64,000 nt of DNA, taken from assembly GCA_000091205.1 (NCBI GenBank), contig AP006500.2; one strand, written 5' to 3'. Below, piece by piece: positions 6,126-64,000 of the stretch (the first letter of the stretch is position 1; the number at the start of each line of letters is the position of its first letter). The stretch is from Cyanidioschyzon merolae. Its lineage: Eukaryota. Below the pieces are notes generated by a model that worked only from the letters and a program-made list of their open reading frames with translations, did no database searches and was not told the origin of the DNA. The position numbers and the translations under genes were made by a program.

Positions 6126-8914
6126 CTCGTTCGACGCTCTCTCAGTCCAATAAATACGGATATTTGTTCTTTCTCGAGTGAATATATCTTCACTATTGTT
6201 TTTTCGTTATGGCCAACACGAACGTAACCGCCGTGTGTTGTGAAAGCCAAAACAACAACGCACAACGTGATAGCGCCAAAAACGCGAAACGCGCGCGCGC
6301 ACTGCAGAGGAATTTGAATTGGGGTCATCATGATGCGATGAAGAATTCACGTTGATGTCGAGACTGGAGCGTAACGGACGTACGGAGATCGGGGTACATA
6401 GTCCGAAATATCCAAGTTGAAAGAGGTACTAAAAACTATATATAGGCTAGTGGGATTTCATTCGAATGAGTAACTCCCGAGTACTGCTCCTTCCAGGTGC
6501 GAGTCAGCAGGGTTCTGCAGGTCACGGCTCTGGGTAAGAAGGATAGCGAATAACAAACTATCGGTTGCTGAGGTTCGTCTTCCACCTGAAAGGCAGATGA
6601 ATCTCTAAGGCGTATTTTCTATTTTATATTTTAGGGAGACGATTGTAGTGGAAGTATTCGGTGTTAGATTTATTGTGTTGCAGTCCTGTTCTCGTGGTGA
6701 CAGCCAAGCTGAGTAGTTGGGAGGTTTATGTAGGTCTGTACCATTGGTATTTGTCTTAGATAAGAAACATTAACTAGTGAGCTCCAATATTTCTATTGCG
6801 AGGAATACTAAACAATATTGCTCGCGAGGAATGTGGTCTCTGATTCGGGACCCTCCCTCGTTGCTCGAAAACACCCGCACATGTCCGTACCCATGCTTCA
6901 GCTATCAACCCACGAAGTGGGAACTCGTAAGTCACTTCTTCATCTAACCGTATTCGGCGTAAGCTTTGAGCATGTATTTCAACTGCCGCTGGCAAGCCTT
7001 GCATCACCATGCATTTGCAGGGCTGGCGCAGACCAATGATCCGCGTAGAATACTTTCACAATCGGAGACTTCCTCACGTTTCATCCAATATACCGAAAAA
7101 TCCTCCGTGGAGTGTATTTTTACATCCCCGCCCCGGAAAGAGAGCTCTGTTGCTGCAGATGACACTATCTACATGAATGTCGGCCTCGATCCGTAACCCG
7201 CCAAGGGCGTCATGACACCAATGAATATCCATGCTCGCATTTCGGAGTGGGAACTTGTTGAACTTTGAAAATGCTCTAGTCTGAATTGGTCTTTTGGCAG
7301 CAGCCAAGATAATGGTCCAACGTCTGGGGGCTCGAGAACTGAAATCAGATCATGTTTGCCTGCTTGATCAGAGTCGCTGAATGTGTAGCTGCTTTTTCAA
7401 GACGGTGCCTAGCATCATGAACAATTGTATTCCCAGAGGCGTCGTTCCGTAACTGTTTAGTTGAGTAGCGGGCAATTTATAAGTACCATATACACCTTTG
7501 GCGATCCGACAGTCTTCCCAGCAGGATCCACGAAAATCTCCGCATAGTTATCGAGCAAACAGCGAGACTTGGCGACCAAGTCTACGGACAAATTCTATCT
7601 CGAACTTCAACCGTGCTCAGGCAATGATGCCAGCACCTGTTTCGCAATGTGCTTTTCATACAGCACATTGCCCAGTACATATCCTTTCTTCTTGAACGCT
7701 CTCCCCAGACATATTGCCCTGGATTCCTTGTTCTCTTTTGTCCAATGATTCGCGGGAGGCACGATCACCGGCTCTGTCAGTGAGCGGAGCCATGATCCAT
7801 TCCTTGGGCCTCTCGCATTGTTCTGTGTTCGATGGCTCGCTGCTACGGCTTCATCGGAGTTTATTTGGATTTTCTCGCATGCGAAGGCGCGTTCTGGAGT
7901 TTAGAGCTTCTTCATGCTACGATCTAGCTTCTGAAATATTTTTCGCAATCTAACCTGCGGGCTGCTTGCGTGGTTCAGCTGCTTACCCTACAGTATCCAA
8001 AGAAAACAGAAAACAGAAGCTAAATACATGCTCGCAACTAGATATTCGCAATTTATCCCCCAGAGTAGAAGTTGAAAGCCGAAATCAACCTTCAATTTGA
8101 CGATTCGCCTTCTTGGCAGAATCTGCCTCGAAAGGGTAAAATCTGTGGAGATGGTACATCCCGTTTCCTCGCCGTAGTGGCGGTGTTCAAACACGACCCA
8201 CGTTGCTCCTCTTCGGCACCGCTTTCCCAGTACACACGGGGAAGGCTGTGTTGGTCAGCACCGTGCCGTAGTAGTCTAGCTTCTTCTAGCCCGCCACTCG
8301 ATGGCTGTCGCTCGGCTGTCGCAGACTAATGACATGTCCTAGCGCACTGCCCGGAAGGTACGACCCACTAATATAACATGAGAGACCGCTCTGCAACTCG
8401 TAGAATCCATTCAAATTCGGAAGAGGGCACTCATAGCATCCCCTGTACCCAGGCAGCTCCTAGGGACCAGGGAAATCCTGATTCCATGCATCTGTCTCAC
8501 GGCCGGAGCAAAAGAATCGGATGCATTTCATATTCAGTACCAGGTCCCACGATGAGATTCAACAATAAATGTCCCTAATTCTGAACGCTTTCGCGTACAC
8601 TCCAGAGCGGATACGCTATATGCAGTGGCCGCACATATGCTCTACACTCACGGACGACCGATTTTAGCATACTCTGGCGCATTCGATGCGAAGTAGGTCA
8701 TAGCTATAGCTATATTAATCACTATTGCAGTACGCTTCATGACTCGCGGAGCGATTTTGGTTCACCACGTCAGGAGGAGTGCCCTCTCACCCGATCACTA
8801 TCCTAGTATGACTGTGGCATGCCGTCTCATCCGTACGCTGTTGCTCCCACATCCGTCCTTGACGCAGCGGTCTGCGCTCCGAAGCCCGCATCTCATTTTC
8901 ATCACTAACAAACC

Positions 8915-10174
8915 TTAGACAGGGGCCAAGATAGTCGACTTGAGGCTTCGCCGCCGCAACGCCTGGTCGATCAGATCAAGACTCAGTTCGTAAAGCTGAT
9001 CTGCCTTGTCGATTTCGTATGTTGGTTCAATAACCTGCGGTTTCGTCTTCTATCCCCCATCCGTTTATTTGCCACGCCACTGATAATACGAGCCCGAGTC
9101 CGAGAACTGTCCCTGGGTCGCCACTTCGGCTACGCGGCGGCCGGCCTCATCATTCGGAACGTATTGCCGAGTGATGTACTTCTGAAGAATCGGGAAGAAT
9201 ACGCAGCGGAACCAGCCACGCTTTTCGCGGAAGAGGTTGCTGTCGGCGACACATCCCGGAAAAATCGCCACAGAGGTCACCCCGCCGCGGCCGTATCGAT
9301 CACTGAGCGCCTTCGTTGTTAACACCTTCGCGGCTTTGGCGTCTTTGTAGGCTTTTGTGGGCTCAAACGGACTATTCTCTTCCATGCCAGTCGTCTACGG
9401 ACCGAGCCCTGCGGCTAGACCAGACAAATCACCAAGACGAGCCTGCGGGGGGATCTTTCCCGGCAACGAATTCGGCGAGTGTGTCTGAGTTGTCAGAAAC
9501 ACAATGCGCCCGCGCGATATTTTCAGCTTCGGCAACAGCTCCCGACATAGAAGCAAATGGCTCAGATGGCATACCTGCATGGTTTCCTCGATGCCGTCCA
9601 CCGTGAAACGCCGTTTCTTGTCCGGCGGATGCCAGAGTGCGGCATTGCAGATCAGGGCATCCATGTGATCAACGCGCGCCACACTCTATTGCTCTCTCAC
9701 AAACTTTAGTACAGAGGCGAAATCAGCCAGATCACAATGCAGCACTGTATAGGCGTCCTTTGGAAGGTTCACGCTGTTTGCTGCGCGTTCCGCCCGGTCG
9801 ACGTCACGACATGCCATGACGATGTTCCAGTTGCCCTTGTTGATCAGAGCGCGAGCTGCATACAGACCGACTCCAGAGCACGCGCCAGTGACCACGGCGA
9901 TCTGCGACTGTTTCGGGCCCATACGAAGATGCAGCGCGTGGTGCCGGCGCGCTACAGGCGATCGCTGCACCACCAAAGGAAGCGGATGCTGGCAGTAATG
10001 ACGATGTCCAGCTGTGAAGCACCTGTCACGTGCGGTACACAGCGGAAACGGTGCTCGAGTTGCAGCGGGTGCGCCAACTATGTGTTTTTCCTGGCACAGC
10101 GAAAAACAAACCAATACGTCTTGCAGTTTTTTGGGATAGATTTTCTCTGGTGGTAAAGCTGCCAACTTCATCAC
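8915..10174 (-). pseudogene. POR: Light-dependent protochlorophyllide oxidoreductase (POR)-like SDR gene. The frame is continuous but interrupted by four in-frame stop codons.
   Basis: The three listed ORF fragments (9686..10174, 9395..9682, 9065..9385) and a further downstream stretch (8918..9049) are all in one frame. Recognisable POR blocks are [26 protein letters not shown] (Rossmann GxxxGxG), DALICNAAL, RIVFLTTQT..LGDLSGLAAGL, KAYKDAKAAKVLT (catalytic YxxxK), IFPGCVADSNLFRE and FFPILQKYIT, plus a C-terminal DKADQLYELSLDLIDQAL resembling the POR C-terminus. The in-frame stops are TAG at 9686-9688, TAG at 9395-9397, TAA at 9065-9067 and TAG at 9050-9052. The final TAA is at 8915-8917. Confidence 0.7.
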
Positions 10175-12514
10175 CGACTAAAGTCGTTCGCGTACGCATG
10201 CATATCCAGTGAGAAATCCTTTTTTCGTTGCTGCACGAGTGATCGCCCGTCAATTGCACAGAGTCCGACTTGTAACTCCCGTAGACTGTCTAGCGTTAAG
10301 CGCATCGAGCACAAGCGCTCAATGTCTTATACAGAGACTAGGCAAAACTCGCAGTTTGCCGAGCAATAATCTCGTCAGTACTGGCCGGTAAGTGTTCCGC
10401 AATGCTGAGTTCAAAGATTACAATGATTGTTGAGGCACGTCGCAGCAGCTCACCGACGAATAACGTAGAGGAGGTACAAGGGACTTACTTCCGGTGGTAC
10501 GTTATTTTGGAAGCGTCTGCACGTCAGTTGGACACGTCACGTCTAGGGCGGGTCTCTCGCCACTACTGTGCACGGCCGGCGACAAAATTTTTCTTTTCAA
10601 GGTCATTTGTTGTTGGTTGTGTCGCTTACGAGCTCGCTGTACTGGTTGGACTCTTGAACTAATCTTATAAAGTAGATCGGAAAACAATATGTGCTTTTGT
10701 CGGATGCCTCGATCGTCCCAGGCGAGATGCAATGCTCAAACGTCGTGGCAGATATAGATGCTATATGTATGCTATGCTTCTGCCGAGATCGCCGGATCCG
10801 AAGGACGTACAGGACACCATAGCTTGTACAACGATGATAGCATGGAAATGACTTGAACTGGCATCAGACCCAGCCCATGACGCCGGATAGATGCAACTTT
10901 CAGGTCAGGTCCTTATTCCAGTGTCCGTGCGGCATGAATAACAAGCATAGGGATTAAAATTATATCCGTGGCCGGGAACACTACCGTACCTAGTTCGGTT
11001 ACGATCCATACAACAGCCGAAAATCCTATTGAGGAGAGTGATGCATACCTAATCCGCATGAGCGTAGGATACTACGATGACTACGCTTTTGATAGAAGCA
11101 TCGCGGAGTTTCGAGCCAGGTCTCAACATCCCGTCGTATGTCAGGGCGGTACTGCAATGGGGAGTAGCGTCGGCACCAGCGACAGAGTCTATAGCATGAT
11201 ATCGTTCTACGTGAGTTTCCGATCTACGATACTTTACTTCCGCTGCAGCGCGATGCGAACACGCATGAGCCACGGCGGCGTCGGACACGTGTCCTTCATC
11301 GATCGGTGAGGCGTCTCGCGCGGTGGACGCATTGTGCGCAGTGAGCGCATCTGGGAGATCGGGAAGTCACGTGACATGATGCGCATGCCGCCGTTGAAGG
11401 AAAACGCGATTGGGCTCAGTCGCGTGTTGTTCTACCGGAGAAAGTTGGATCTCCATCGAGGTCGTAAACAAGTGTAGTTATCAGTTCATTAGGTTCTGGA
11501 AATTCGAGCAAGTCTAGTCAAGTGTTTATCGCAGTACATGACAGAAGGGTTCAAAGAGCGTCCTTTTTCGAAAAAAAAAACTAAAAAAGGAAAGCTATGA
11601 AAAAACAAGTCGACGATCCTGGAGGCCCAGGGTCGCAGGCTGCCAGAAAAAATAATAAACAACAGTGACAAGTCCGGAAGAAAATGAAGAGAAGAAGAAG
11701 GACCGAAGGGGGGCCCTTCGTTGAAAGCTGCAAGAAAGACAACTTTACCACGAGAAGGTGGTGAAAGCCTTCCTTCTTGGACATATCAGACATCCCTGTA
11801 GGGAAAAGTTGCGAGACGCTATCGAAAAACGTGTCGACTCGAACTCCATGACTACCGTAAAGGCGTCGTCAGGACTTATGCATTTGGTGAGGGAGATGTG
11901 TCGCGACGTGATGCGCATGGAAACGGTCGAGATTCCGGACGAGTTTCATTGATACGATCTTTATTCGTCACCTGATTTTTGGTACAGAGGAAGCGCGGAA
12001 GGAAAACGAGCTGGTGCATGCTCTCCACGAAAAACATCCCTTTTACGGGCTCGAGAGTACTCCATACAAGTGAGACTGCAGTAATTACATCTACGGAACG
12101 ATGAAGTACCTCACGAACCTGACGAACCATTGACAATGAACCTCGAACTTTTCATAATACGCGCCGTGTTTGGACGTTACCCGAGCGTCTCTCGCAAAGG
12201 GGATATGGGCGATGATCAATTGCATCACGAAAGATCGAAAGTATGAAGATATGGTCGACTTTGTTGACAAGAAGGCGTCGAAAGAGAGCACGAATGAAGC
12301 TACTGTAATCCGTGCGGTTGTACATGAGCACTGTTTAGTCTTGGGGCTGGCGAATCCAGCGGAAATGGCATCATATATAGAAAAAAGATGAAAAAAGATG
12401 TTATCACCTCATCTTGCTCTATTTCGTATTCCTGAATCGAGTACGCGAACGCAAGGCAGAGATGAAGCCTAGTGAGGAGAACATGAAGCGTGGGGGAGAC
12501 GGAAGGCGTCCCTA

Positions 12515-12823
12515 ATGCGTAAGCGCTTCAATGGCGCTCCGTTGTGCAACATCAAGTCATATTTTGTGAGCATCGACTTTAGAAACCTTCACGGCATCAT
12601 GAAGGAGATCAGTCCCGAGCTCGATGTTAGCAGGGAGGACTTCAGCGGCGAAAACTGGCAGACGTACTGGAAGAGTATCTTCGATTTCAAACGTCTGAAA
12701 GTCAGCAAACAAAAGGTATTCGTGGGGAGATCGAACAGATGGAATAACCTTGTGTATGCACTATCGGCGGTTGAAGAGAGATCATCAAGTTCCTCCCTCG
12801 GCTGCGCCCGTGACGAAGGATGA
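12515..12823 (+). pseudogene. N-terminal module of the TnpB/Fanzor-like protein (copy 1 fragment).
   Basis: [41 protein letters not shown] aligns with copy 2 [41 protein letters not shown] (42918..43127). Confidence 0.5.
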
Positions 12824-13568
12824 AGATGAGATGGAGGCGGATCCTGCAACGCAGAAAGTGCAGGATAACGAGTTCATCGTTGACGGGGCGAAGGATGAAA
12901 ATGAGAAGGGGGCGGATCCTGCTAAGCAGGAGGTGGAGGATAACGACCTTGTTGTTGACACGATGAAGCATGAAGATAACAAAGAGACGGGTCCTGCGAC
13001 GCAGGAGGTGGAGGATAACGACTTTATTGTTGACATAACGAAGGATGAGGATGAGAAGAAGGCGGGTCCTGTGATGCAGGAGGTGCAGGATGACGCCTTT
13101 ATGGTTGGCGCGGTGAAGCATGATGAAAACAACAAGGCGGATCCAGCGACCCAGAAAGTGCATGATAATGACTTTATCGTTGGCGCGGACCCCGGAAACA
13201 CAAATATCATCACCATCGCAGCACCGAAGCGTGCGGGCGATGGTGCTGATGGTAACTTACGTCAGAAAGACATGCACCTTTTGAGGTTCTCGAGAGCGAG
13301 ACACTATCGAGAATCGGGTATAATGAATGCGAGGAAGAAAACTGAAACATGGAAAGCAGGAATAAAGGATCACCCGGAAGCTTTGAGCGAGGCGACGAGC
13401 CGAGGAGCGGACTTTGAAGCTTTTCGGAAATTCGTGGAAGTTCGTGTTGCTCATTGGGATGCGCTGTGGGAGGCGTATACCAAGCCACAATGGGCTCGGT
13501 TGCGAATCAATCTATACGGTGGGAAGCAGCGGGCGTTCGCCAACTTTTTCAATCAGTTGAGCGCCTGA
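12750..13568 (+). pseudogene. TnpB/Fanzor-like RuvC module, copy 1 fragment: RuvC-I region plus a 5x 75-bp in-frame repeat expansion, then truncated by a frameshift.
   Basis: ..[67 protein letters not shown] is collinear with copy 2. A 1-nt loss near 13566 shifts the frame. In-frame TGA and TAA follow in the continuation (13454..13648 and beyond). Confidence 0.55.
12830..13195 (+). repeat. Tandem 75-bp coding repeat (about 5 units), present only in copy 1 of the element.
   Basis: A repeated peptide of about 25 aa, DPATQKVQDNEFIVDGAKDENEKGA, and variants. Copy 2 has a single unit ([21 protein letters not shown]). Confidence 0.8.
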
Positions 13569-13753
13569 AGGAGGATGATAGTCGAAGGCTGGTAGTGGCA
13601 TACGGAGCAGGGCGCTGGGTGCCCAAGAAAGGAACTACTCCAGCTTGAACGACGATGGTGTAAAAGGAGTGCGCAGTACGTTTCGTAACGATACCTGTAG
13701 ATGAGTTTCGAACGTCCTATATACACCATGAACTGGGGTGTACACTTCAGAGC

Positions 13754-14098
13754 GTGGAGATGGAAAAGTGCCAGCGGAGCCTTGAGGATGTAAAAAAGTA
13801 TGGACCGCTGACGGAGGAGCAAATGGAAAGGAGGGTGGAAGTGCGAGGGCTACTCGCATTGATTAGTATGATCAATGGCAAGAAACGTATGGAGTTCGTG
13901 AACCGAGACTTTAATGCCGCTATCAATATCAGGAGATGTGCGGTGCTGGAGAAAAGACCTCCAGAGTCGACAAGAGGGAACTTTGTTGGACAACCTCTCG
14001 AAGTGGAACTATATGAGAAAAAATTGGAAGCAGTCATGGGTGGCCGGTCGAGAAAGACGGGGAGGCGTCCGCACTCCAGTTGGAGACGTTTTGTCTAA
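13754..14098 (+). pseudogene. C-terminal fragment of the TnpB/Fanzor-like protein (copy 1) containing the RuvC-III motif.
   Basis: ..[34 protein letters not shown].. carries the hallmark TnpB/Cas12/Fanzor RuvC-III signature RDxNAAxNI. It aligns to copy 2 ..[34 protein letters not shown].. Confidence 0.6.
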
Positions 14099-14373
14099 GG
14101 CGCGTTCGCCGCCACTAATGTACACCGCTGGCGACGGCGGCGTTAGATGCGTGCCACGTGGCACTCGATACGCGCTCTGCAGGGGGTCTTCGGGATTCGA
14201 GATGCGAGCTCCATGACACGTTGCAGCGGATCATGCGTGACGTGCGCTCGCATCTTTCTGATGCCCGCGACGCCGTATGTGTGTTTTCCCGCCTTTATAA
14301 CACAAAGCACTGCTTATACTCGCGTTACTAAAAGTGAGTTTCCTTCTAGGCACCAGCGAAGACGTGGGAATCA

Positions 14374-36794: not shown

Positions 36795-37450
36795 ATACCA
36801 GTATGAAGAGGCGCGAAAAGTCATTCCAGGAACCGGCCTTGAATACCCGAACATCCACCATACCAGAATGAAGAGGCACGAAAAGTCAGAATGGTAGTGT
36901 GCCCTATGTACCCGAACATCCACCACACCAGATTGAAGAGGCACGAAAAGTCAGAATGGTTATGTGCACTACGCACCCGAACATCCACCATACCAGTATG
37001 AAGAGGCACGAAAAGTCATTCCAGGAACCGGCCTTGAATACCCGAACATCCACCATACCAGAATGAAGAGGCACGAAAAGTCAGAATGGTTATGTGCACT
37101 ACGCACCCGAACATCCACCATACCAGTATGAAGAGGCACGAAAAGTCATTCCAGGAACCGGCCTTGAATACCCGAACATCCACCGATACCAGAGTGAAGA
37201 GGCACGAAAAGTCAGAATGGTTATGTGCACTACGCACCCGAACATCCACCATACCAGTATGAAGAGGCACGAAAAGTCATTCCAGGAACCGGCCTTGAAT
37301 ACCCGAACATCCACCGATACCAGAGTGAAGAGGCACGAAAAGTCAGAATGGTTATGTGCACTACGCACCCGAACATCCACCATACCAGTATGAAGAGGCA
37401 CGAAAAGTCATTCCAGGAACCGGCCTTGAATACCCGAACATCCACCGATA
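36795..37450. repeat. Tandem array of about 5 copies of a 131-bp unit made of two related subunits of about 65 bp.
   Basis: ORF-track peptides starting MHYAPEHPPYQYEEARKVIPGTGLEYPNIH recur at 37094, 37225 and 37356, giving a 131-nt period. Both subunits share cccgaacatccacc(g)ataccag.(a/g)tgaagaggcacgaaaagtca. Confidence 0.85.
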
Positions 37451-37542
37451 CCGAAATGCAGCGCGACGCGTCCAGGAAAAAATCGCGGCGATATCGAGGC
37501 ATCCGTTGCGTACAAGCAGGTGGAGGTCGCTCTCCAGGAACG

Positions 37543-39369
37543 ATGTTCGTAGCTTTACCAAGTGTGCTGTTCACCAGCAAACCCTCAAGGATACGTACTG
37601 TTAAGATTGAAAAGCGTAGAACGTTATTTGCCTGCGACAGGGCGAAAGCAGGCACCGATGGGAACGCTAGCAACGCTGCGGCGTCAGCACCGAAACCCTC
37701 TGCTGCGAGCAGCGGGCGATCTGCTGGTACTGCAGCTCGAGACCAGGTAACGATCAGTGCCCAGACGAGTTCGTCAAACTCGCGGACGATAGATCGAAGC
37801 ACCGATTCATCGCAAACAGTACAGGTTGCGTCCATGTTTGACTCGATGACGAAGCGCCGTGAGGCTGCTCGCCGCGAGGCGCTGAGCATCGTCGTGCTGG
37901 GCGCGTCCGGGGATCTGGCCCGCAAGAAGACGCTCCCGGCGCTTTTCTCACTCTACTACCACGATCTGCTGCCGAGCGACTTTTATGTGGTCGGCTACGC
38001 ACGATCAAACATGACGAGCGAGGCGTTCCGGAACACGATCAAGTCAAGTTTGACCTGCCGCGTTATCGAAGGCCCCGAGTGCGCACGCAAAATGGAGCAT
38101 TTCCTCTCGCGTTGTTTCTACGTTTCCGGAACTTATCATGAAACTACTGCATTCCGAACGCTGGACGAGTTTCTCGTGAACGAGTTTGAGAAAGAGCGCT
38201 GGAATCGCGGGGTTCCGACCAATCGCCTCTACTACTTGGCGATTCCTTCCAACGTCTTCGCTGAGGCCTGTCGCGGCATCGCCCATGCCCACACCAAGCC
38301 TCCGGAGTCGACCAAGGGCTGGATGCGGGTCGTCTTGGAGAAACCGTTCGGGAGAGATCTGGATACCTTCCAGACCCTGCACCAGGAACTGCAATTGTAC
38401 ATTAGCGAGGAACAAACCTTCCGCATTGACCATTACTTGGGCAAGGAGCTCGTTCAGAACGTGCTGGCGCTGCGCTTTGCGAATTATTTTTTGGAGCCTC
38501 TCTGGAACAACCAACACATCCAATCTATCCAGGTGACGTTCAAGGAGAACTTTGGTGTCGAGGGACGCGCTGGCTACTTTGACCAGTACGGAATCATCCG
38601 CGACATCATGCAGAATCACCTGCTGCAAATGGTGGCGCTCTTTACGATGGAACAGCCGGCTTCTTTGAACGCCGAAGATATTCGTGACGAGAAAGTGAAA
38701 GTCTTGCGCAGTTTGGAAACGCTACGTGCTACAGATTTCGTCATCGGGCAGTATATGGGGTATCGGGAGGAAGACGGCGTTCGTCCGGGCTCCAAGACGC
38801 CTACGTTTGCAGCGTGTCGGATGAACATTCGAAACCGACGCTGGGACGGTGTACCGATCCTGGTCAAAGCGGGGAAGCATTTGGATGAACGCCTCGCGGA
38901 AGTGCGTGTCACGTTCCGCAGTGTGCCTGGTAGTATTTTCTCGCTTGCGAATACCCTGCCGAACAATGAGCTTGTTGTTCGCGTTCAGCCCGACGAAGCC
39001 ATTTATCTTCGCATCGTCAGCAAATCCCCGGGGTTGACCTCTCGCCTAGAAGAGGCGCGTCTGACGCTATTCTACCGGACGGCCTGGGAAGAAGCGCACG
39101 ACATTCCCGATGCCTACGAGCGCCTCATCTTGGACGTCATCTATGGTGACAAATCGCTCTTCATACGAAGCGATGAATTAAAAGTCGCCTGGGAGAAGTT
39201 TACGCCGGCGCTTCACGAACTCGAGCAGAGCGACCGCTATCGACCGGTACCGTACGTAGCGGGCAGTCGCGGCCCTGCCGAAGCCGACTACCTTGCCGCG
39301 CGCTACGGATGCGTTTGGGCCAGCGACCTTGACATTGGCGGCAAGCGACTGCAAAGCAAGGTGCCGTAA
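37543..39369 (+). CDS. G6PD: Glucose-6-phosphate 1-dehydrogenase, probably the plastid-targeted isoform. The listed ORF 37225..39369 extends 5' into the repeat array; the start is more likely ATG 37543 or 37456.
   Basis: LSIVVLGASGDLARKKTLPALF..GYARS (NADP-binding), the exact active-site motif RIDHYLGKE, then ..QNHLLQMVALF..MEQP.. The N-terminus is MFVALPSVLFTSKPS.. followed by a Ser/Ala/Thr-rich presequence. The stop is TAA. Confidence 0.85.
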   Translation: MFVALPSVLFTSKPSRIRTVKIEKRRTLFACDRAKAGTDGNASNAAASAPKPSAASSGRSAGTAARDQVTISAQTSSSNSRTIDRSTDSSQTVQVASMFDSMTKRREAARREALSIVVLGASGDLARKKTLPALFSLYYHDLLPSDFYVVGYARSNMTSEAFRNTIKSSLTCRVIEGPECARKMEHFLSRCFYVSGTYHETTAFRTLDEFLVNEFEKERWNRGVPTNRLYYLAIPSNVFAEACRGIAHAHTKPPESTKGWMRVVLEKPFGRDLDTFQTLHQELQLYISEEQTFRIDHYLGKELVQNVLALRFANYFLEPLWNNQHIQSIQVTFKENFGVEGRAGYFDQYGIIRDIMQNHLLQMVALFTMEQPASLNAEDIRDEKVKVLRSLETLRATDFVIGQYMGYREEDGVRPGSKTPTFAACRMNIRNRRWDGVPILVKAGKHLDERLAEVRVTFRSVPGSIFSLANTLPNNELVVRVQPDEAIYLRIVSKSPGLTSRLEEARLTLFYRTAWEEAHDIPDAYERLILDVIYGDKSLFIRSDELKVAWEKFTPALHELEQSDRYRPVPYVAGSRGPAEADYLAARYGCVWASDLDIGGKRLQSKVP

Positions 39370-39973
39370 AAACCAGACAGTCCGACTTCCGCCTAGTCTG
39401 GATCGGAGGAGTTTCCAGATGCCCTGGCGATTCCCGAATCCCGGTCGGCGCCTACGAAGCCTACCATCAAGCCGGGCATGCACCGCGAGTAGTCGACGCG
39501 CACAACGCGCTCTACGAAAATCCAAAAGCTCGCGGCACCAGCACTTTACAGCCACAAAACTTGTCTCATGAAAGCGGCGAATAAAACCTCTGTCATCGTC
39601 ATCTGTGAATGTACGGGTGAGGCATCGCGGATCGCGCAGCACAGAACACCTCCACGAGATACACCAGTGAATCGTCGCGATAGCACGTCCGGCTGTGATC
39701 TTTTCGGATACACACACAAGACATGCACTGATGGATTCGCTCAGCGGATACCGCTCGACATGCAATGCCCAGTGCCTGCATCCATTCGTGAACGACGCTC
39801 ACACCTGCACTACGCAACAAGCATCAGCGAGACTTGCGATTCGCCACGCAAAGGATGTACCCGCATTGCCGAAATCGTAGCCGCTATCAAAGTGCAGCGT
39901 TCAACGCATGAAAAACGACTCCGCAATTCCAGTCTATCCTTTTGCTGCATCAACAGTCTCGTTTCGGAAGCGA

Positions 39974-41527
39974 TCAAGCAGGTTTGAAGAATGCCCGAGC
40001 GAGCTGGCGGCGCAGCCAGCGCAGCCACGAGAGCGATCGCGGCAAGCCGAGGCCTCCAAGTGCTCGGAAACGAAAATTGTTCATCGCTCGATTGTACTGC
40101 ACATTGCGGATCCAGGCGGTTGCAGCACACCAACTCCAGCGCTCCGCCTCGCGACGAGCAGCGTCGCCCATCCGTTTGCGCATGACGGCATCGCCGAGTA
40201 GGGCACATACATAGGTTGCAGCCTCGCTGGTGTTGCCCTTGGTGTACAGAAATCCTGTCTCGCCGTGAACAATCAGATCGGGGATACCGCCAGCTGCTGT
40301 GGCAACTACAGGCACACCCGATGCCATGGCCTCCAGTACCACAAACCCAAGGGTTTCGCTCTCTGAGGGCATCACAAATACGTCGGCACAGGCGAATGCT
40401 CGCGATAAATCATCGCCGTGTAGTTGTCCGGTCATGACCACGGGCAGACCTGCGAAATGTCGCCGTACCGTCTCGGCGTACGGTCCGTCACCGACGAAAG
40501 CGAGTCGCGTTCCGGGTGGACAACAGGTGAGGATCCGCTTCAAACTCAGCAGATTCTTCTCGGCACCGAGTCGCCCGATGTAAACCAGCAGCGGCGCGGT
40601 AGGATGGCCATCTGTGAGCCGCGCCCGCATCGCACCACCATCATCGTTGCGGAAACGCGGATGGAAGCGCTCCGTGTTGATGCCTTTTCGCCAGAGGTCC
40701 ACGCGCTCGATGCCGTGTTGTCGAAGTTCTGCGCATATCTGTGGAGACGTCGCCAGCGTCAGGTCTGCGCGATTCAAACAGAAACGCATGAGTGTCCACG
40801 CCAGTCCTATGAGAATCCCTAACCCATAAGTTTTCGCATACATTGGTAGATGTGTGTGATACGATGCAACAAGTGGCTTGCGCAGAACACGCGCCATGAG
40901 AAGGATGGCAAATACCAGGAATCCGGGTGTTGCCAAGTGGATGAGGTCAGGATCGAACTCGCGAACGCGCTGCAGCAAACTGCGCCTTCCGAAAACCATG
41001 CCACTACCAAAGCCGATTGAGAGCGTAATGCGTGGATAGAGTGCAAACTTGAAACCCCGGATGGTTATAACCGGATAACCGAACACTTCTTGCGGTGCGT
41101 CCGGCGAGTTATCGGGGGTTATGATCAATACCTCGTCGCCGGCCTCTTTCAAATACCGTAATAGCTCATTAAAACGATTCGAATACCCGGACACGTGCGT
41201 GAACGGCGTCGGTTCAACCACGAGACACACTCGACGCCGAGGCGCGCGCCGCAGGTCAACGAGGTTCGGGTCATCGCCCGACGTCGGCTGCGGGTACACG
41301 GGACCAGTGGCGACACTCGCCAGTGCGAACGCGCAGCTCGTCCGCGGTACACCCGGTGCCCGCAGCCGGACTGGCGCATAGCGTCGCCTCAAGAGAGCAA
41401 CCTCTAAGGGACACAGCTGCGAGCCGTTTGATGGCGCGCTCTGCCGCCTCAACGTCCGCGCGCACGCGAAAGCGCCAGTGTCCCCGTTGTTAACGCCCAG
41501 GAATGCCGCTGTTCGACCAGTGAACAT
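39974..41527 (-). CDS. SQD2: Sulfoquinovosyl-diacylglycerol synthase (SQD2-type GT4 glycosyltransferase) with an N-terminal presequence.
   Basis: RVCLVVEPTPFTHVSGYSNRFNELLRYLKEAGDEVLIITPD..FGYPVI. The match continues through ..YHTHLPMYA..ADLTLATSP.., ..RLAFVGDGPY.E.. and ..GDDLSRAFACADVFVMPSESETLGFVVLEAMASGVPVVATAAGGIPDLI, collinear with plant SQD2. The N-terminus is MFTGRTAAFLG.. The stop is TGA. Confidence 0.85.
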   Translation of the reverse strand: MFTGRTAAFLGVNNGDTGAFACARTLRRQSAPSNGSQLCPLEVALLRRRYAPVRLRAPGVPRTSCAFALASVATGPVYPQPTSGDDPNLVDLRRAPRRRVCLVVEPTPFTHVSGYSNRFNELLRYLKEAGDEVLIITPDNSPDAPQEVFGYPVITIRGFKFALYPRITLSIGFGSGMVFGRRSLLQRVREFDPDLIHLATPGFLVFAILLMARVLRKPLVASYHTHLPMYAKTYGLGILIGLAWTLMRFCLNRADLTLATSPQICAELRQHGIERVDLWRKGINTERFHPRFRNDDGGAMRARLTDGHPTAPLLVYIGRLGAEKNLLSLKRILTCCPPGTRLAFVGDGPYAETVRRHFAGLPVVMTGQLHGDDLSRAFACADVFVMPSESETLGFVVLEAMASGVPVVATAAGGIPDLIVHGETGFLYTKGNTSEAATYVCALLGDAVMRKRMGDAARREAERWSWCAATAWIRNVQYNRAMNNFRFRALGGLGLPRSLSWLRWLRRQLARAFFKPA

Positions 41528-42917
41528 TCACCGCCACCAACACCAACACCAGCTGAAGCAACGATACCAACAACAGTTCTATAGTCTGCACGAGAGCGAC
41601 TCTACCTGTCTGTAGCCTCCTTGTGTTGAAGGGTACGCGTTAGCGCCCGTTGGGCCGCCACCGCATCGGCAACGCGCCCCAAGCGTGAGGGCTTGTCCAG
41701 CGAATTACATGCCCACAACACCGCGGCTGCAGGCGATGCGCATCGAATCTTGCTGCCGATGCGCTGTCATATTTTGTTCGATAACGAAATTCGTTTATAT
41801 CGACGCTGGATCCTAGATTGCGGGATGGGTATTCGTAATCGCAAAAGCATCCATTATGATGCAGTTACCCCCAAGTTCCATTATTCGTACTTCATTTCGG
41901 ATATGCTGGTCGGTTTGCACGTTCAGTCGTGCACCTAACCTGCCCTGATCGTCCGCGATAGCGCCTATACCGCTGGAGCAGATCTTTCATAGAGGCAGAG
42001 CGGCGTTGCGATTCCACTGAGGGTAATGGCTCGAGGCGCGGCTCACCGTACACGGAATCGGAGTAGCGAATCATTCTGGGCGCCTGCGAGCCGCGCAGAG
42101 AGACGTACTTTCTGCGACAGCGCGAAGCGATATACTAAGAGTCCACCGCTACCGAGGCGACACCAAGACGCAGCCTAACTGCCCCTAATCCCAGAACAAA
42201 CTGCGTTACGGACGAGTTGCTCAGATTTGGCCACAACATAGGGAAACGGAGCGATAGCCTGGCATGCTCGTCCGACTCGTGGGGCCTTCCGTCTAAAAGG
42301 TAAACTTTCGACAATACCGAAATCTTTTCCCCTTTTTGACGTTTATCGTAGATGGTAAAAGGAATTTTTTATCGTTGCAAGTGAGTGGTTAGTCTCTGTC
42401 CTTTGTTCTACATAGTGCGGTCGATACGCGTACCTCCATATCTAGCAGGCATGAGATACGACGTGCATCTTGTCGCTACAGGGAATAGCGACCCTCACCG
42501 TTATCGTATTGATGGAATATACAAGTTGCATTTGCGTAACAGCCGTACCAAAATGCAAGGTTTCCATTCAGTTGTGTTTCAACCCTCAAGTCAGTGTACT
42601 CATGTGATTTTTTTCCGGTTTATATCAGAAGCGTTCAAAGTGCGTTCTTTTTCAGAAAGAAATAAGAAAGGAAAGTTGTCGAAATGGAAGTGGAGGATCC
42701 CGAAGGCCCTGGGTCACCACCTGGCAGAAAAAACGAAAAAAAGTGCCGCGCGAAGAGGAACAGGAGAATACCAAGGAGCGAACATGGACGCCCCACGTCA
42801 CAAGCTGTCTGAATCGAGAACTCGAACGCAAGGCGGAGATGGAGCTGGGTGTCGAAAAAATGAAGAGTCCGTGGAACGGAAGACTGCGCTTCTCGGGAAG
42901 CGATTCGACGCCGTTCC

Positions 42918-43127
42918 GTGATATGCAACATCAAGTGGCACTCTGCGACCATCGACTCCAGTGTCCGTCATGGCATTATGAGGGAGACCAGCTCCGAGTT
43001 CGATGTAAGCAACAAGGAATTCACAGGTGAAAACCGGGAGACGTACTGGAAGTATATCGTAGACTTGAAACGTCTCGAAACGGGCAAGAAAAGGCATCCA
43101 CGGAGACGATCGAAACCGATGGTGTAG
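42918..43127 (+). CDS. N-terminal module of the TnpB/Fanzor-like protein (copy 2). It is in a different frame from the RuvC ORF and may be joined to it by splicing or frameshifting.
   Basis: Homologous to copy 1 12515..12823. It ends with TAG at 43125-43127, immediately 5' of the RuvC-frame ATG at 43130. Confidence 0.45.
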
Positions 43128-43129
43128 CC

Positions 43130-44119
43130 ATGTGTGTACGCTATCGGCGGTCGAAGGCAGATCGTCCTGGTCCGCCTTCGATATCGCCCTCGGGGAAGCA
43201 TGAAGAAAAGGAAATGGCAGATCCTAGGATGCAGGAGGTGCAGGAGAGCGACTTTGTTGTTGGCGCGGACCCTGGGGCTACGAACATCGTAACCATCGCA
43301 GTACCCAAGCGTGCGGAAAATGGCATTCGCGGCAACTTGCATCAGAAAGATATGCGTATTTTGAGGTTCTCGAGAGCGAGATACTATCGAGAATCGGGAA
43401 TCATGAATACGAGGAAGAAAATCGAGACATGGAATGCAGGAATGAATGAGCACCAGGAAGCTATGAGCCAGGTGACGAGCCGAGGAGCGGACTGTCGAGC
43501 TTTTCGGGAGTTCATGGAAGTTCGTGTTGCCCATTGGGATGCGCTGTGGGAGGAGTATACCAAGCCCCGGTGGGCTCGTTTGCGTATGAATCTATACGGT
43601 GGGAAGCAGCGGGCCTTTACGAATTCTTTCAATCAGTTGAGTGCCCTGAAGGAGGATGAGAGTCAGGGGCTCGTAGTAGCGTACGGGGCAGGGCGATGGA
43701 AGACCCAAAAAGGGACTACGCCAGCTCCAACGACGAGAACGTGTAAGGAGTGCGCACGGCGTTTTGTTACAATACCGATAGATGAGTTCCGAACGTCCTA
43801 TACACACCATGAGCTGGGGTGTACGCTTCAGAGAGTGGAGATGGAAAAGCGCCAAAGGAGTCCTGAGGAAATCGCAAAGTACGGACCGCTGACGGAGGAG
43901 CAAATGGAAAGGAGAGCGAAAGTTCGAGGATTGCTTGCATTAGTAAGTACAACCAACGATGGCAAGAAACGTATGGAGTTTGTGAACCGAGAATTCAATG
44001 CCGCTATGAATATCAGGAGATGTGCGCTGTTGGAGAATAGACCTCCGGAGTCGACAAGAGGGAACTTGTTGGACAACCTCTCAAAGTGGAACTATATGAG
44101 AAAAAATTGGAAGAAGTAG
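43130..44119 (+). CDS. TnpB/Fanzor-like RuvC nuclease module (329 aa).
   Basis: RuvC-I-like [15 protein letters not shown]; the zinc-finger remnant [11 protein letters not shown] followed by [13 protein letters not shown]; the RuvC-III signature [15 protein letters not shown]. The canonical RuvC-II (vvEdLn) position reads [10 protein letters not shown]. Confidence 0.65.
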
Positions 44120-44326
44120 TTGGTGGCCCGTCGAGAAAGACGGGGAGGCGTCCGCACACCAGTTGGCGACGCTATATCTAACACGCGTTCGCCGCCACTA
44201 CTGTACACCGCTGGCGACTGCTTGCGACCTTTGAAAAGCTTTCGGTCGACACGAAACACCCCTAAAAGGCGATACCGTACATCCCTAAGCAACTCGATAA
44301 AAGATTTGCAACCTCCCAGCGCACGC

Positions 44327-45493
44327 ATGCTTCGGTACAGCTTCATTAACGCCGTCTGGCCGTCCAAGTCATGCGGCAGGGTCCACGTTGAGCGCCATCG
44401 AAAGCAGAAGACACAGTCTGTACAAACTGCACAGCGCTGGAAACTGCGGGCGAACTTGAACCGGCGAGGTCCAGACTCAGCGACCTGGGATCGGCAGGGC
44501 GGTGGCCAGGCGGAGCGCCTGCTTATGGAGCAGGTACTGCAACTGAGGCGAGAGTTAGATGCCTTGCGAGCGGAGAATGAGAGTTTGCGTAAATATCGTG
44601 TCAACGAGCACCTGCTCGTGGATGCCGACGACTCTGTCACAACCGAGGACGGACGGACGCGTTGCGGCAAGCACGGGGAGCGCTCGCGCTATTTACCGGT
44701 CTATTCAGTCGCCCCTGAAGAGGTTCTAAGCCGCGTCATCCCCGTCATTGGACCTAACCCAACGATCGAGCAACTCGACGCAGCAATCACGCTGTCGTTC
44801 CAAGTACGCGATGAGCTGGTGAACCGACGTGGGCTCGAGCGTTACGAGGATGTCATGGCTGGTCGATTCCTCGTGTTCCAGACCAGTGAACTACCTGTCA
44901 AGGGGGTCCAGAGAGTCGCCCTTCCTGGTACGGTAGGATCGATGCGCTGGGCGTCGGCACCAGTTGGTATCCTGATGCCTGCCTCCGAGCTGGGACTGGA
45001 GTCCTTCTACCCGAACGCTCCGACGGATGTCAACTGTCTTGTCATTATCGAGGCTGATTTCGATTCAGAGATCCCCGCGGATACCCTGGCATCACCTGAC
45101 ATCATTCGCGACATCCGAGACGGTACCAAAGACGTGCTCGACCGTATCGAAAACGTTTGGTTCGACGAGCAAGGCCGCGCGTCTCGCGATGCCGGCTTTC
45201 CGAGCTCGCTCACTGAAGAGACAGAAACCGACGAGGACGAGCAACCAGACGAAAACGGTGACGGACCGGAATTCAGTCCGGGGAAATTTTACCTCTGGCT
45301 GGAGGAGAGGCCTCCGCAGGGCGTCGAGTCCGGCGAGGAGCCAGCCCACAGGTGGCACGTTCGCTGGTATGAGCGTCGTCCAGACCCCGCGGTTGACGGT
45401 GTGGAATGCGTTGGCCGCGTGATTACCGTGATAGCACCGAGCGCTTCAAGGCGTCGCACCAAGACGTTTGCCGAAGAGGACGATGTGTTCTAA
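44327..45493 (+). CDS. Hypothetical protein with a coiled-coil segment and an acidic C-terminal region. The listed ORF 44120..45493 reads through from inside the element's right end; the start is probably ATG 44327.
   Basis: A long ORF with LQLRRELDALRAENESLRKY (coiled coil) and an acidic tract TEETETDEDEQPDENGDGPE. No family recognised. Confidence 0.45.
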   Translation: MLRYSFINAVWPSKSCGRVHVERHRKQKTQSVQTAQRWKLRANLNRRGPDSATWDRQGGGQAERLLMEQVLQLRRELDALRAENESLRKYRVNEHLLVDADDSVTTEDGRTRCGKHGERSRYLPVYSVAPEEVLSRVIPVIGPNPTIEQLDAAITLSFQVRDELVNRRGLERYEDVMAGRFLVFQTSELPVKGVQRVALPGTVGSMRWASAPVGILMPASELGLESFYPNAPTDVNCLVIIEADFDSEIPADTLASPDIIRDIRDGTKDVLDRIENVWFDEQGRASRDAGFPSSLTEETETDEDEQPDENGDGPEFSPGKFYLWLEERPPQGVESGEEPAHRWHVRWYERRPDPAVDGVECVGRVITVIAPSASRRRTKTFAEEDDVF

Positions 45494-60619: not shown

Positions 60620-61800
60620 CGCCCGGAGCGTTCCATGCGGTGGGAAACGTCCCCGCCGCCTCCTCCTCCTCCTCGTGCACACAACCGACACCGCCAAAGC
60701 ACAAAGCGTGAAACGTGATCACTGGTACGGAATAGCGTCAACACTGGGTGCTTGTTCATGGATGGGCTATGGACGGTGGTCCCGGGCAGTGCCGTGCGGT
60801 GGGAAACGTCCCCGCCGCCTCCTCCTCCTCCTCGTGCACACAACCGACACCGCCAAAGCACAAAGCGTGAAACGTGATCACTGGTACGGAATAGCGTCAA
60901 CACTGGGTGCTTGTTCATGGATGGGTTATGGACGGTGGTCCCGGGCAGTGCCGTGCGGTGGGAAACGTCCCCGCCGCCTCCTCCTCATCCTCCTCCTCCT
61001 CCTCGTGCACACAACCGACACCGCCAAAGCACAAAGCGTGAAACGTGATCACTGGTACGGAATAGCGTCAACACTGGGTGCTTGTTCATGGATGGGCTAT
61101 GGACGGTGGTCCCGGGCAGTGCCGTGCGGTGGGAAACGTCCCCGCCGCCTCCTCCTCATCCTCCTCCTCCTCCTCCTCGTGCACACAACCGACACCGCCA
61201 AAGCACAAAGCGTGAAACGTGATCACTGCTACGGAACAGCGTCAACACTGGGTGCTTGTTCATGGATGGGTTATGGACGGTGGTCCCGGGCAGTGCCGTG
61301 CGGTGGGAAACGTCCCCGCCGCCTCCTCCTCATCCTCCTCCTCCTCCTCGTGCACACAACCGACACCGCCAAAGCACAAAGCGTGAAACGTGATCACTGG
61401 TACGGAACAGCGTCAACACTGGGTGCTTGTTCATGGATGGGTTATGGACGGTGGTCCCGGGCAGTGCCGTGCGGTGGGAAACGTCCCCGCCGCCTCCTCC
61501 TCATCCTTCTCCTCCGCCTCGTGCACGCAACCGACACCGCCAAAGCACAAAGCGTGAAACATGATCACTGGTACGGAACAGCGTCAACACTGGGTGCTTG
61601 TTCATGGATGGGTTATGGACGGTGGTCCCGGGCAGTGCCGTGCGGTGGGAAACGTCCCCGCCGCCTCCTCCTCATCCTCCTCCTCCGCCTCGTGCACACA
61701 ACCGACACCGCCAAAGCACAAAGCGTGAAACGTGATCACTGGTACGGAATAGCGTCAACACTGGGTGCTTGTTCATGGATGGGTTATGGACGGTGGTCCG
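60620..61800. repeat. Satellite-like tandem array, about 7 units of about 158-174 bp, each containing a variable (CCT)n tract.
   Basis: The unit ..gtgccgtgcggtgggaaacgtccccgccgcc(tcc)n tcgtgcacacaaccgacaccgccaaagcacaaagcgtgaaacgtgatcactggtacggaatagcgtcaacactgggtgcttgttcatggatgggttatggacggtggtcccgggca.. recurs at about 60634, 60792, 60951, 61119, 61293, 61465 and 61637. Confidence 0.9.
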
Positions 61801-64000
61801 GGTGCAAACCTGCTTGGCGGGTACCAACTTGGTCGTGGTTTACGCGTGTGACAAGCGTACCCGAAGCGCGTATCGTCATGAATGGATTTCGTGCTTGGTA
61901 GGCTGCGGACTGGATGCAAAGCTGCTCGATGCAGTGTAGCAGCGGAGTCGATGTTGGATAGCAGCAGTGTTTGGTTGACGTGCATCACTGGGGTTGCGTG
62001 AGTGAGGCATCAGGAATCACGTTATAGAAAAAGATGTATGTCAACGATGAGCACTCAGGGCATGATCGCGGGGGAGTCGAGGTCGCATCATCCGGCATCC
62101 GCAACGATCGAAAATGATGTTGCTTCCCTGCTGTTGGCGGCTATGTGTTCGGTACCAGGTATTGTGTTCGGGTGCAATACGCAACGTCCATCGCTCAACA
62201 AACATGAAGGATAAGTAGCATGGCGGAGGAGTTTCAGAGGAGCGCGGATCCCTGGACCGGTTGCGCTGCTCGCGCTCGGTAAATGTTTCCGATCCTGTTC
62301 TCGGCGAATAGGATCGATATTCAGAGAGCAGTAGTACAGGATTCGGGACACTAGGTCGACTTTTTGAAACGGCTGGTTCGGCGAGTTGCCGCTGCAATTC
62401 ATCAAGTCACTGAAATCAAGATGAATTGTGATGTCGGCGAACACCGGTGCCGCAAAGTAATCCATTTCGCGATCCAATGCATACGTACATGCCTCCACTA
62501 GTCCCATTTGCTTACACGCAGCACGCTGGAATCATGCGCTCTTCAACTTGTCGATCTTTCTGTTCTAAAAAAACTCCCGGGTGTAGTGATTCGCGTGGCT
62601 GGGTCCCCGGGCTCAGAAACTCAACGTCGTGCCTTGACGACTTTATATACAACTCCGGCCGAAATATCACTGAAACGCTCAAGGCAAATACGGATCGAGT
62701 TCATTCGAAAGAGGAATTCCTCTATCTTTGAGTCCATCGCCAAAACCGCATTCGATAGCAGGATGAAACCTCGTACGAGATACGCTCCAAACACGCCCGT
62801 CTCTTTTTTTCGGAATGAAGAAAAAGGGCCCTGGACTCGAACTCGACTCGTCGCAGCGATCACTTGTAACGGAGATTGCGTCACAGTATTGCACGACGGG
62901 ATCGTAGACGGGGTGGAATTTCTCGACTTGCTCTCTAGCCGAGATTTTCCTTCGGGTTCAAGTTCCATTATGGACGACAATGCGTTCCATGAATCCGGTA
63001 TTAACTGGAACAAAGTGAGTTTTCGTTGGTGCAGAAGAAAGCGATTGCGGTGAGGGCATTGCTCAGAAAAAGCGTGAGATCGTCGAGTACGGCACTGGGC
63101 GGATACCCGGCACAGAGGGTTACCGAGGCGAGCCTTCTCTACCCGTCCAGGGCAGGTACTGGGCTATGAAACAGGCGCATGTCGCACTGCAGGGCGGCCC
63201 ACGGAGCATGCATAATGGTGAATGCACGGGAGTACCTGACGAGTATCCTTTGGAAGCGCTGGGCGGGCCAAACCGGTGCTATATACAAAGAAAATGAAAA
63301 ACGCTCGAAGCGAAGATCATAACCTGCGACTGGGCCTGCATTGCGTCGGTAAAGAAAATGGAAAACGCTCGAAGCGAAGATCATAACCTGCGACTGGGCC
63401 TGCATTGCGTCGATAACAGCGTAGAGCACCGAAATCGGGATTTGAACGCTGTCCCCAACATCCTTCGAATACTGACAACAGAGCTGCAAGAACAGAAGAC
63501 ATCGCCGAATGTACATCCAGAGATAAGAAAGAGTGCGGATAAACAAAACAGTCACCGACAAATCCAGTCATGGCCGGTGTTGATAACATCAGAAACAACC
63601 CACAGCTCTCATGTGAGCGCCCCAGTACGAGCACCCGTTCCAGTTTGATTTGATATGCATATAGACGAACGTGGGAAAACGAACCCCAAACTCTGGATGA
63701 TTTCAAGACATACCCCAGAATATGAGTCCGAGACCAGGATGCATCCGGCAGGGCAGCGGCTGGTTTCGCGTCGCTGGTCGGGTACAGGACGAACACCACG
63801 AGGCCCCAATTAGTTTGCAATCCGAGCGAATCCACTCCGTCGGCACCGCTATCCGAATATCCCCGTCTTTCATCAACAACAGAGCAAGTGGCATGTTGGT
63901 GCTCAAACTCTAGGCTAGCGCTACATTACCGGTGAGATGGTGTTGGAGCATCTCGACCAGGCGCGAGATGACCAGTTTTGGTGCCTGCGAGCGCACCACT

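Follow-up and report, generated by a model that had tools for sequence, protein, structure and literature searches.

The 64,000-nt window considered here, from Cyanidioschyzon merolae (GenBank assembly GCA_000091205.1, contig AP006500.2), contains two copies of CMe-1A, a transposase-less repeat that carries a Fanzor1 nuclease gene. The stretch at 44100-44230, which a sequence-only reading had singled out as a conserved tail behind the nuclease gene, does lie within the element's 3'-terminal module, and is part of that module in a dead copy (copy 2). On balance, comparison with other family members favours identifying this module as the family's candidate template for the omegaRNA (ωRNA) scaffold, and probably also as the right end of the element at the DNA level. 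The module is taken as a scaffold because its features fit those of published Fanzor1 ωRNAs, and the flagged stretch probably once templated the guide-RNA scaffold of the nuclease encoded upstream of it.

The open reading frame (ORF) had been read as a TnpB-like nuclease, and profile matches to Fanzor1 structures uphold that assignment and place the protein in the Fanzor1 type. The 219 close relatives returned by a word-indexed search came exclusively from a small number of JGI and ENA metagenomes, and a profile search of 1.84 billion representative proteins returned 1443 relatives. A7, a profile built from 76 diverse full-length relatives, matches two Fanzor1 proteins with solved structures, those of Parasitella parasitica (PpFz1, 9CF0; E=6.8e-21) and Spizellomyces punctatus (SpuFz1, 8GKH; E=9e-14), with alignments that span the WED motifs FxTIDT and FxGxIxTDG and the RuvC I, II and III motifs. 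The longest ORF remaining in copy 2 (43130-44119, plus strand, 329 aa) matches A7 in hhalign with a probability of 100% and E=3e-61. Only this broader profile reached the Fanzor structures; the window ORFs and a narrow family profile had no matches among Pfam, NCBIfam or PDB sequences.

The RuvC triad (D421, E592 and D658, in the motifs GxDPG, DEFRT[ST] and NRDxNAAxNI) is invariant or nearly so in the family. Copy 1 keeps all three residues; copy 2 keeps the first Asp and the Glu, in GADPGAT and IDEFRTS, and fails at the third, 10-residue motif, where the RuvC-III Asp is replaced by Glu. Between RuvC-II and RuvC-III the family has HH...C...C instead of a clear C4 arrangement, and weak, sub-threshold matches to PF07282 (Cas12f1-like_TNB) occur in four of ten distant full-length relatives (E=0.002-0.18). 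An AlphaFold2 model built from a 50-sequence alignment was unusable (predicted local distance difference test score, pLDDT, of 42), and a scan of IMG/VR gave no viral relatives. Across 54 copies, pairwise identity at codon positions 1, 2 and 3 is 0.84, 0.87 and 0.73, which shows that protein selection acted on the family ORF.

The element is CMe-1A, matched by its published description and not by alignment to the Repbase consensus. CMe-1A was described by Bao and Jurka in 2013 as an unclassified repeat of ~3 kb, with ~150 copies that are ~80% identical to the consensus, no terminal inverted repeats (TIRs), target-site duplications (TSDs) that could not be determined, and a 5' 635 bp corresponding to TE-N2_CMe (PMC3627910). 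The window copies come from the same organism, belong to a ~3-kb Fanzor1 repeat, show copy identities of 71-83% and have no TIRs. They also have a separable 5' part of ~630 nt that fits the 5' 635 bp said to correspond to TE-N2_CMe. The 2013 paper was written before ωRNAs were discovered, and mentions neither a 3' module nor hairpins nor a fixed right end.

The 5' part, an extension of ~630 nt (10705-11330), is found beside some copies only (L026, L007/L051 and L009/L039, with differing truncation points), and is probably the TE-N2_CMe part of the CMe-1A consensus. The core begins at ~11327 with the palindrome GCGCTCAGTGAGCGC. This is the most frequent left boundary, and others fall at 10705, 10767, 10899 and 11277. 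A 27-nt complementarity of 70% between 11368-11394 and 14134-14160 did not extend on re-alignment and was discarded as chance.

The right end behaves differently from the left. Eighty related loci and a few more were fetched, and 58 non-redundant right ends with unrelated flanks were extracted from these related metagenome contigs. The right end is common to these 58 independent copies within ~8 nt, whereas the 5' boundaries vary. The tail is common to all of them, and in most of them family homology runs through a terminal hairpin to about ...GGCGTT(G/T)nTGGTG, beyond which pairwise identity drops to background (0.30). The main sequence types of the hairpin are type A (GGCGTCGTTCGA-CTT-TCGAACGGCGTT) and type B (CGACAACGTTTTTC-TTTY-GAAAGRCGTTGTTG), and is followed by a short G/T-rich stretch, for example GTTGATGGTG or GTTTGTTG. 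At four right ends (L047, L017, L031 and L079 at ~330-345) the sequence TTYCAGGGGTR directly follows the hairpin; either it extends the element in one subfamily, or it is a target sequence common to the four.

These additional right ends change the picture that had been drawn from the two window copies alone. The likeness of the two copies up to 14138 and 44221 is real, and their last 156 nt (13983-14138 and 44066-44221) are 90% identical. Self-BLAST of the window aligns 13111-14138 with 43191-44221 (83%) and 12432-12888 with 42809-43268 (71%), a more sensitive alignment extends the match to 11442-11763 with 42523-42841, and the 17-mer TGTACACCGCTGGCGAC is exact in both copies (14119-14135 and 44202-44218). 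The abrupt divergence reported after this point stands insofar as the two copies cannot be aligned past 14138 and 44221, but the breakpoint is particular to this pair. It sits in the 5' arm of the family's terminal hairpin, and the copies diverge there because copy 1 has lost the inner part of the hairpin (GGCGAC|GGCGGCGTTAGATG...) and copy 2 has a divergent variant.

The boundary between element and guide had been placed at this breakpoint; in the 58 right ends, however, conservation runs ~30-40 nt further. Breakpoints at variable positions in further copies had been named as an observation that would count against a scaffold, and in the copies added here the breakpoint is consistent, ~30-40 nt further on. 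The stretch of 95 nt said to be conserved past the nuclease stop is likewise shorter than it seemed, as the stop in question was made by a frameshift in copy 2: ~61 nt of it are coding and 37 nt (44182-44218) are non-coding. The two self-complementary pieces quoted from it, gccagcggtgtaca and tgtacaccgctggc, are one site written on both strands, and a search of both strands found only one such site per copy. Of the first description, the placement of the stretch in a scaffold-like 3' module stands, and this module has conserved hairpins and a constrained non-coding block; the tail length, self-complementarity and exact boundary do not hold.

Family-wide, the last ~110 nt of the element contain three hairpins (stem-loops SL-a, SL-b and SL-c) and a strongly constrained block, CGCCACTACTGTACAC. 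SL-a has the consensus GGCGTCT-GCACGTCAGTTGG-AGACGTC, with a 7-bp stem (GGCGUCU/AGACGUC) in the last codons of the ORF. SL-b lies just 3' of the stop codon, and SL-c is the terminal hairpin, of 12-15 bp. Well-kept copies show the three hairpins with the constrained block between them, at z = -1.65 to -3.55. Pairwise identity averages 0.87 in the block (bootstrap P<5e-5 against 4-fold degenerate sites, which average 0.698). Turnover exceeds that of the 4-fold sites in the SL-b loop (identity 0.49) and in the terminal hairpin (0.61), but the hairpins are kept.

The mean folding energy of the terminal region is -16.4 kcal/mol for the sense strand, compared with -10.9 for the antisense strand and -10.2 for flanking DNA; the sense fold is the lower of the two strands in 53 of 58 copies (P=1.3e-9), and shuffle z-scores average -1.8 in the terminal hairpin region and -0.07 in the flank. 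A model-guided alignment of 84 distinct copies shows pairing in 82% of cells, compared with 39-57% in slid-partner controls, and changes on both sides are seen in 20 of 29 pairs, compared with 11.6±2.1 in shuffles (reached in 0 of 500). G·U or U·G is the commonest pair at six of the 29 positions, and because of these pairs the structure exists on the sense strand only. Thermodynamic prediction also gives a long-range helix that would pair CAGTAGTGGGTGGC in the ORF with GCCACTACTGT in the tail; both sides are nearly invariant, so that the pair counts speak neither for nor against it. Rfam gave no hits at the gathering threshold, with nearby ones at chance level only.

Several results weigh against the scaffold interpretation. 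The model-fitted alignment leans towards structure, and covariation support is accordingly modest: RNAalifold applied to an unbiased MAFFT alignment returned no consensus structure, and pairing in that alignment is 80.7%, compared with 79.7% in shuffles. The covariance and structure analysis that had been proposed as a check thus gives a divided answer, favourable in the model-guided alignment and the folding energies, and unfavourable in RNAalifold and the near-null unbiased alignment. The modules of the window copies themselves show no folding advantage over shuffles (z = -0.41 and +0.03). Conservation of a solo module (described below) across five related loci is 0.81, no better than the 0.76-0.83 of its flanks. 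Identity at 4-fold sites of the last 25 codons is 0.757 compared with 0.691 elsewhere, which is not significant (P=0.10). Hairpins of single-stranded DNA can accommodate G·T wobbles as well, and the strand asymmetry therefore cannot separate an RNA role from a single-stranded DNA role. Finally, no target-adjacent motif (TAM) can be derived from the left flanks, because the left ends are variable.

If the module is a scaffold, active family members would transcribe the last ~110 nt on the sense strand as the ωRNA scaffold, with SL-a overlapping the last ~12 codons and SL-b immediately downstream of the stop codon, then the constrained block CGCCACUACUGUACAC and finally SL-c. The guide would then consist of the 14-20 nt of host DNA immediately beyond SL-c, a layout like that of SpuFz1, GtFz1 and TnpB. 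At intact CMe-1A copies, the predicted sense species would run from near GGAGGCGUCUGCAC to 14-20 nt past the terminal hairpin, and the same sequence would probably also mark the right end of the element in DNA. In copy 2, the guide would start near 44246-44258 and not at 44219, some 30-40 nt after the breakpoint seen between the window copies. A homing target, for which a comparison of the sequence beyond the boundary had been suggested, was not seen: the 40-50 nt past each right end have no other match in the window or in 88 loci, and the sole matches are to near-identical or collinear copies (L083, and L058, L077 and L079 for the solo module).

The main rival is a pure DNA-level role, in which the module is a transposon end recognized on one strand by an unlinked enzyme (of the HUH/Rep type or another transposase), or a signal at which replication starts or stops. 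This is a possibility of real but clearly lesser weight. The element has no TIRs and encodes no transposase (PMC3627910), and it combines a palindrome at the left end of the core with a hairpin at the right end, as do IS200/IS605 elements and the Helitron2 carriers of Fanzor genes. The fixed 3' ends, variable 5' ends and carried-over upstream DNA suggest one-ended copying, and a hairpin whose sequence turns over while its shape is kept would suit such an end. However, no Rep, helicase or other transposase turned up inside or beside the examined copies (RepHel was not searched genome-wide), and neither a CTRR-type terminus nor a TSD is detectable at the 58 right ends. SL-a, SL-b and the block moreover reach ~75 nt inward and enter the ORF, beyond what end recognition usually needs. 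A DNA-end role is also compatible with an ωRNA scaffold, as the right end of IS200/IS605 elements serves both roles.

An ordinary 3' untranslated region (UTR) of the Fanzor mRNA, in which the module would serve 3'-end formation or stability and be followed by a GU-rich downstream element, is less likely than the DNA-end role and improbable in itself. Its place on the sense strand immediately behind the stop codon, the hairpin followed by G/T-rich sequence, and the sense-strand G·U pairing, which suits any RNA role, agree with it. The C. merolae poly(A) signal UAAA, used by ~93% of genes (PMC8831791), is nonetheless present in only two of 58 tails, compared with 13 of 58 adjacent flanks, and on this scarcity a poly(A) signal was rejected as the explanation of the tail. 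The structured region also starts inside the ORF, and an ORF-less solo copy retains the whole module. Least probable of the alternatives is shared ancestry alone, with a tail that has no function of its own. Mean pairwise identity in the tail is 0.738, near that of third codon positions (0.731) and of 4-fold sites; both window copies are decaying pseudogenes, and the solo copy is conserved no more than its flanks. Against this stand the uneven conservation of the tail, with a constrained 16-nt block and loops below the neutral level, and hairpins that are kept despite turnover and fold better than shuffles or flanks. The ωRNA scaffold, probably doubling as the right end, therefore remains the preferred identification of the module.

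Both window copies are pseudogenes. Copy 2 spans 42417-44250 on the plus strand, its left end having been aligned to the family left-end consensus from 42417, and ~700-800 nt that are present in copy 1 have been deleted from its interior. It lacks one T at 44066-44067 (gggaacTTgttgg, compared with gggaacTTTgttgg in copy 1), and because of this 1-nt deletion its 329-aa ORF ends at a TAG at 44117-44119. The ancestral C-terminal coding frame continues at 44068-44181 (plus strand), with 37 residues and the true stop, TAA, at 44179-44181; the restored C-terminus is also present in copy 1 and in the database homologues P0006, P0007, P0010 and P0019. A remnant of SL-a lies inside the last ORF codons at 44144-44172 (plus strand), as located by a base-pair probability vote across copies, single-sequence folds and pair counts. 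The true non-coding tail (44182-44218, plus strand) holds a degraded SL-b and the constrained block at 44193-44208. It is followed by the divergent terminal hairpin region (44219-44250, plus strand; CGACC...GGTCG at 44225-44248, from alignments and fold), which still belongs to the element and whose variant is closest to the type found at locus L051.

The core of copy 1 extends from 11327 to 14159 on the plus strand, with several frameshifts and stops. At its 3' end (plus strand), an ORF at 13754-14098 ends in the stop TAA at 14096-14098, followed by the tail at 14099-14135 with the constrained block at 14110-14125. The covariance model places the 3' module at 14055-14159 in this copy (78 bits), at 44138-44245 in copy 2, and at 10503-10622 in a solo copy. 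The module is functional in neither of the two ORF-bearing window copies, given their broken ORFs, the Glu for Asp substitution, the loss of the inner part of SL-c in copy 1 and the degraded hairpins in copy 2. The ORF of copy 1 also contains a 75-nt tandem repeat of 4.9 units (12812-13182) that encodes an acidic repeat (…ATQEVEDNDLVVD.KHED.KEA…); there is one such unit in copy 2 and in P0007, and at least five in other homologues.

The solo 3' module (10503-10622, plus strand), detected with BLAST, nhmmer and the covariance model, has no adjacent ORF and lies 3.55 kb upstream of the module of copy 1. It comprises SL-a, SL-b, the constrained block and a type-B terminal hairpin with a shuffle z of -2.8. 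The same arrangement recurs in L058, L075, L077 and L079, and no further solo modules were found outside one group of collinear loci. The terminal hairpin of the solo module (10584-10615) is of type B in the window, L058 and L075, and of type A in L079 (308-343) and L077 (3878-3913), so that the hairpin has been swapped within collinear flanks that are ~80% alike; gene conversion between copies is a possible cause.

A block of at least 7.4 kb (6703-14136), consisting of a left flank, a gene resembling those of the short-chain dehydrogenase/reductase (SDR) family, the solo module, a 5' extension of ~700 nt and copy 1, recurs at ~80% identity in these same four loci, with right flanks that differ from that of the window and from one another. 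It may represent a much longer repeated unit, 5' transduction or a rearrangement at the right end. The short-chain dehydrogenase gene in the block (9065-10174, minus strand) now consists of three neighbouring ORFs that differ in frame, and the two nearest its 5' end match adh_short; in a finished genome with very few introns, it looks like a pseudogene within the repeated block. Its resemblance to protochlorophyllide reductase was noted by eye only. Invariant 3' ends, variable 5' ends and this block with its different right flanks are the reasons for suggesting that CMe-1A might spread without a transposase, by Fanzor/ωRNA-guided cleavage of sites like the right flank followed by one-sided, repair-driven copying from the right end leftwards over a variable distance, although such a route is at present a long shot.

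Other loci also contain more than one element. In L079 (right-end anchors at 307, 3549 and 7412), L039, L073 and L028/L022, two or three elements or modules share one orientation and are separated by 3-5 kb, and pairs of copies lie in opposite orientations in L064 and head-to-head in L054. Such loci may reflect clustering or preferential insertion near existing copies. L084 is an ENA metagenome contig that is 98% identical to the window at 38000-44208, and its positions 1-420 correspond to 44100-44530 of the window. Beyond the identical part it continues with another tail, a type-A hairpin and unrelated flanking sequence that carries an SPX-domain gene, as a result of either recombination between element copies or chimeric assembly at the repeat.

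The remainder of the window includes a glycosyltransferase gene near copy 2 (39974-41527, minus strand) whose product is identical to BAM82305.1 of C. merolae strain 10D, the strain to which the window belongs. Three further tandem arrays, at 36795-37452 (65/131 nt), 60659-61799 (171/345 nt) and 63287-63416 (64 nt), have unit identities of up to 96-97% and are unrelated to the Fanzor element. An ORF of 918 aa at 3369-6125 (minus strand) contains Kelch repeats, Thr/Pro-rich linkers, trefoil domains and a poly-Gln run, and its product looks like an unusual secreted or mucin-like protein.

Both the CMe-1A family itself (2013) and the location of Fanzor1 guide-RNA scaffolds at the right end of their elements (2023-24) were known from earlier publications. 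What is added here is a candidate ωRNA architecture for a red-algal Fanzor1 family, in which a 7-bp first stem in the end of the ORF would be followed by a constrained 16-nt linker and a fast-evolving terminal hairpin, together with a corrected start for the guide. With its 3' ends fixed and its 5' ends variable, the element may be copied by an unconventional mechanism. Having a finished 16.5-Mb genome, efficient homologous recombination and ~150 copies of this transposase-less element, C. merolae would be a good native host for studying what Fanzor does for the element that carries it.

Among the elements described with CMe-1A, the unclassified Fanzor1 family MCi-2 of Mucor circinelloides is similar in having a common Fanzor-bearing 3' region, differing 5' regions and fuzzy 5' ends, and the Helitron2-borne CRe-1, CRe-2 and CRe-3 of Chlamydomonas have hairpins near the 3' end (PMC3627910). 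A point of difference is that no RepHel partner, asymmetric terminal inverted repeats (ATIRs), T-rich target or TSD was detected for CMe-1A. IS200/IS605 elements, with the TnpB ωRNA (also called reRNA) of ISDra2 as an example, resemble CMe-1A in their subterminal hairpins and lack of TIRs, and their scaffold, like the candidate one of CMe-1A, runs across the 3' end of the nuclease gene as far as the boundary of the element. CMe-1A differs from them as a eukaryotic nuclear element with variable 5' ends and ~150 old, diverged copies, which carries a single ORF and no TnpA and so falls outside that group.

The closest comparison is with the Fanzor1 ωRNAs, whose scaffold lies at the 3' end and reaches the right end, with a guide of 14-15 nt beyond it (PMC10432273, PMC11423790). 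In these RNAs a conserved 7-bp stem (SL1) is accompanied by distal stems under little constraint, and in GtFz1 the scaffold overlaps the end of the ORF (PMC10432273, PMC11423790). CMe-1A differs from SpuFz1, which has 30-nt inverted repeats where the CMe-1A copies have none, and from the Fanzor1 ωRNAs in general by having three stems in place of two and a strongly constrained linker for which no counterpart has been described. SL-a resembles SL1 in stem length and position only. In other respects the systems agree: CMe-1A and SpuFz1, PpFz1 and GtFz1 have homologous proteins and a conserved non-coding 3' module that reaches the right end; the module overlaps the last ORF codons, as in GtFz1; and the first stem is of 7 bp and well conserved while the distal stems are poorly constrained. 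The ORF-less CMe-1A copy that keeps its module likewise corresponds to the 'ghost' loci of S. punctatus, which have no ORF but keep the module (PMC10432273, PMC11423790).

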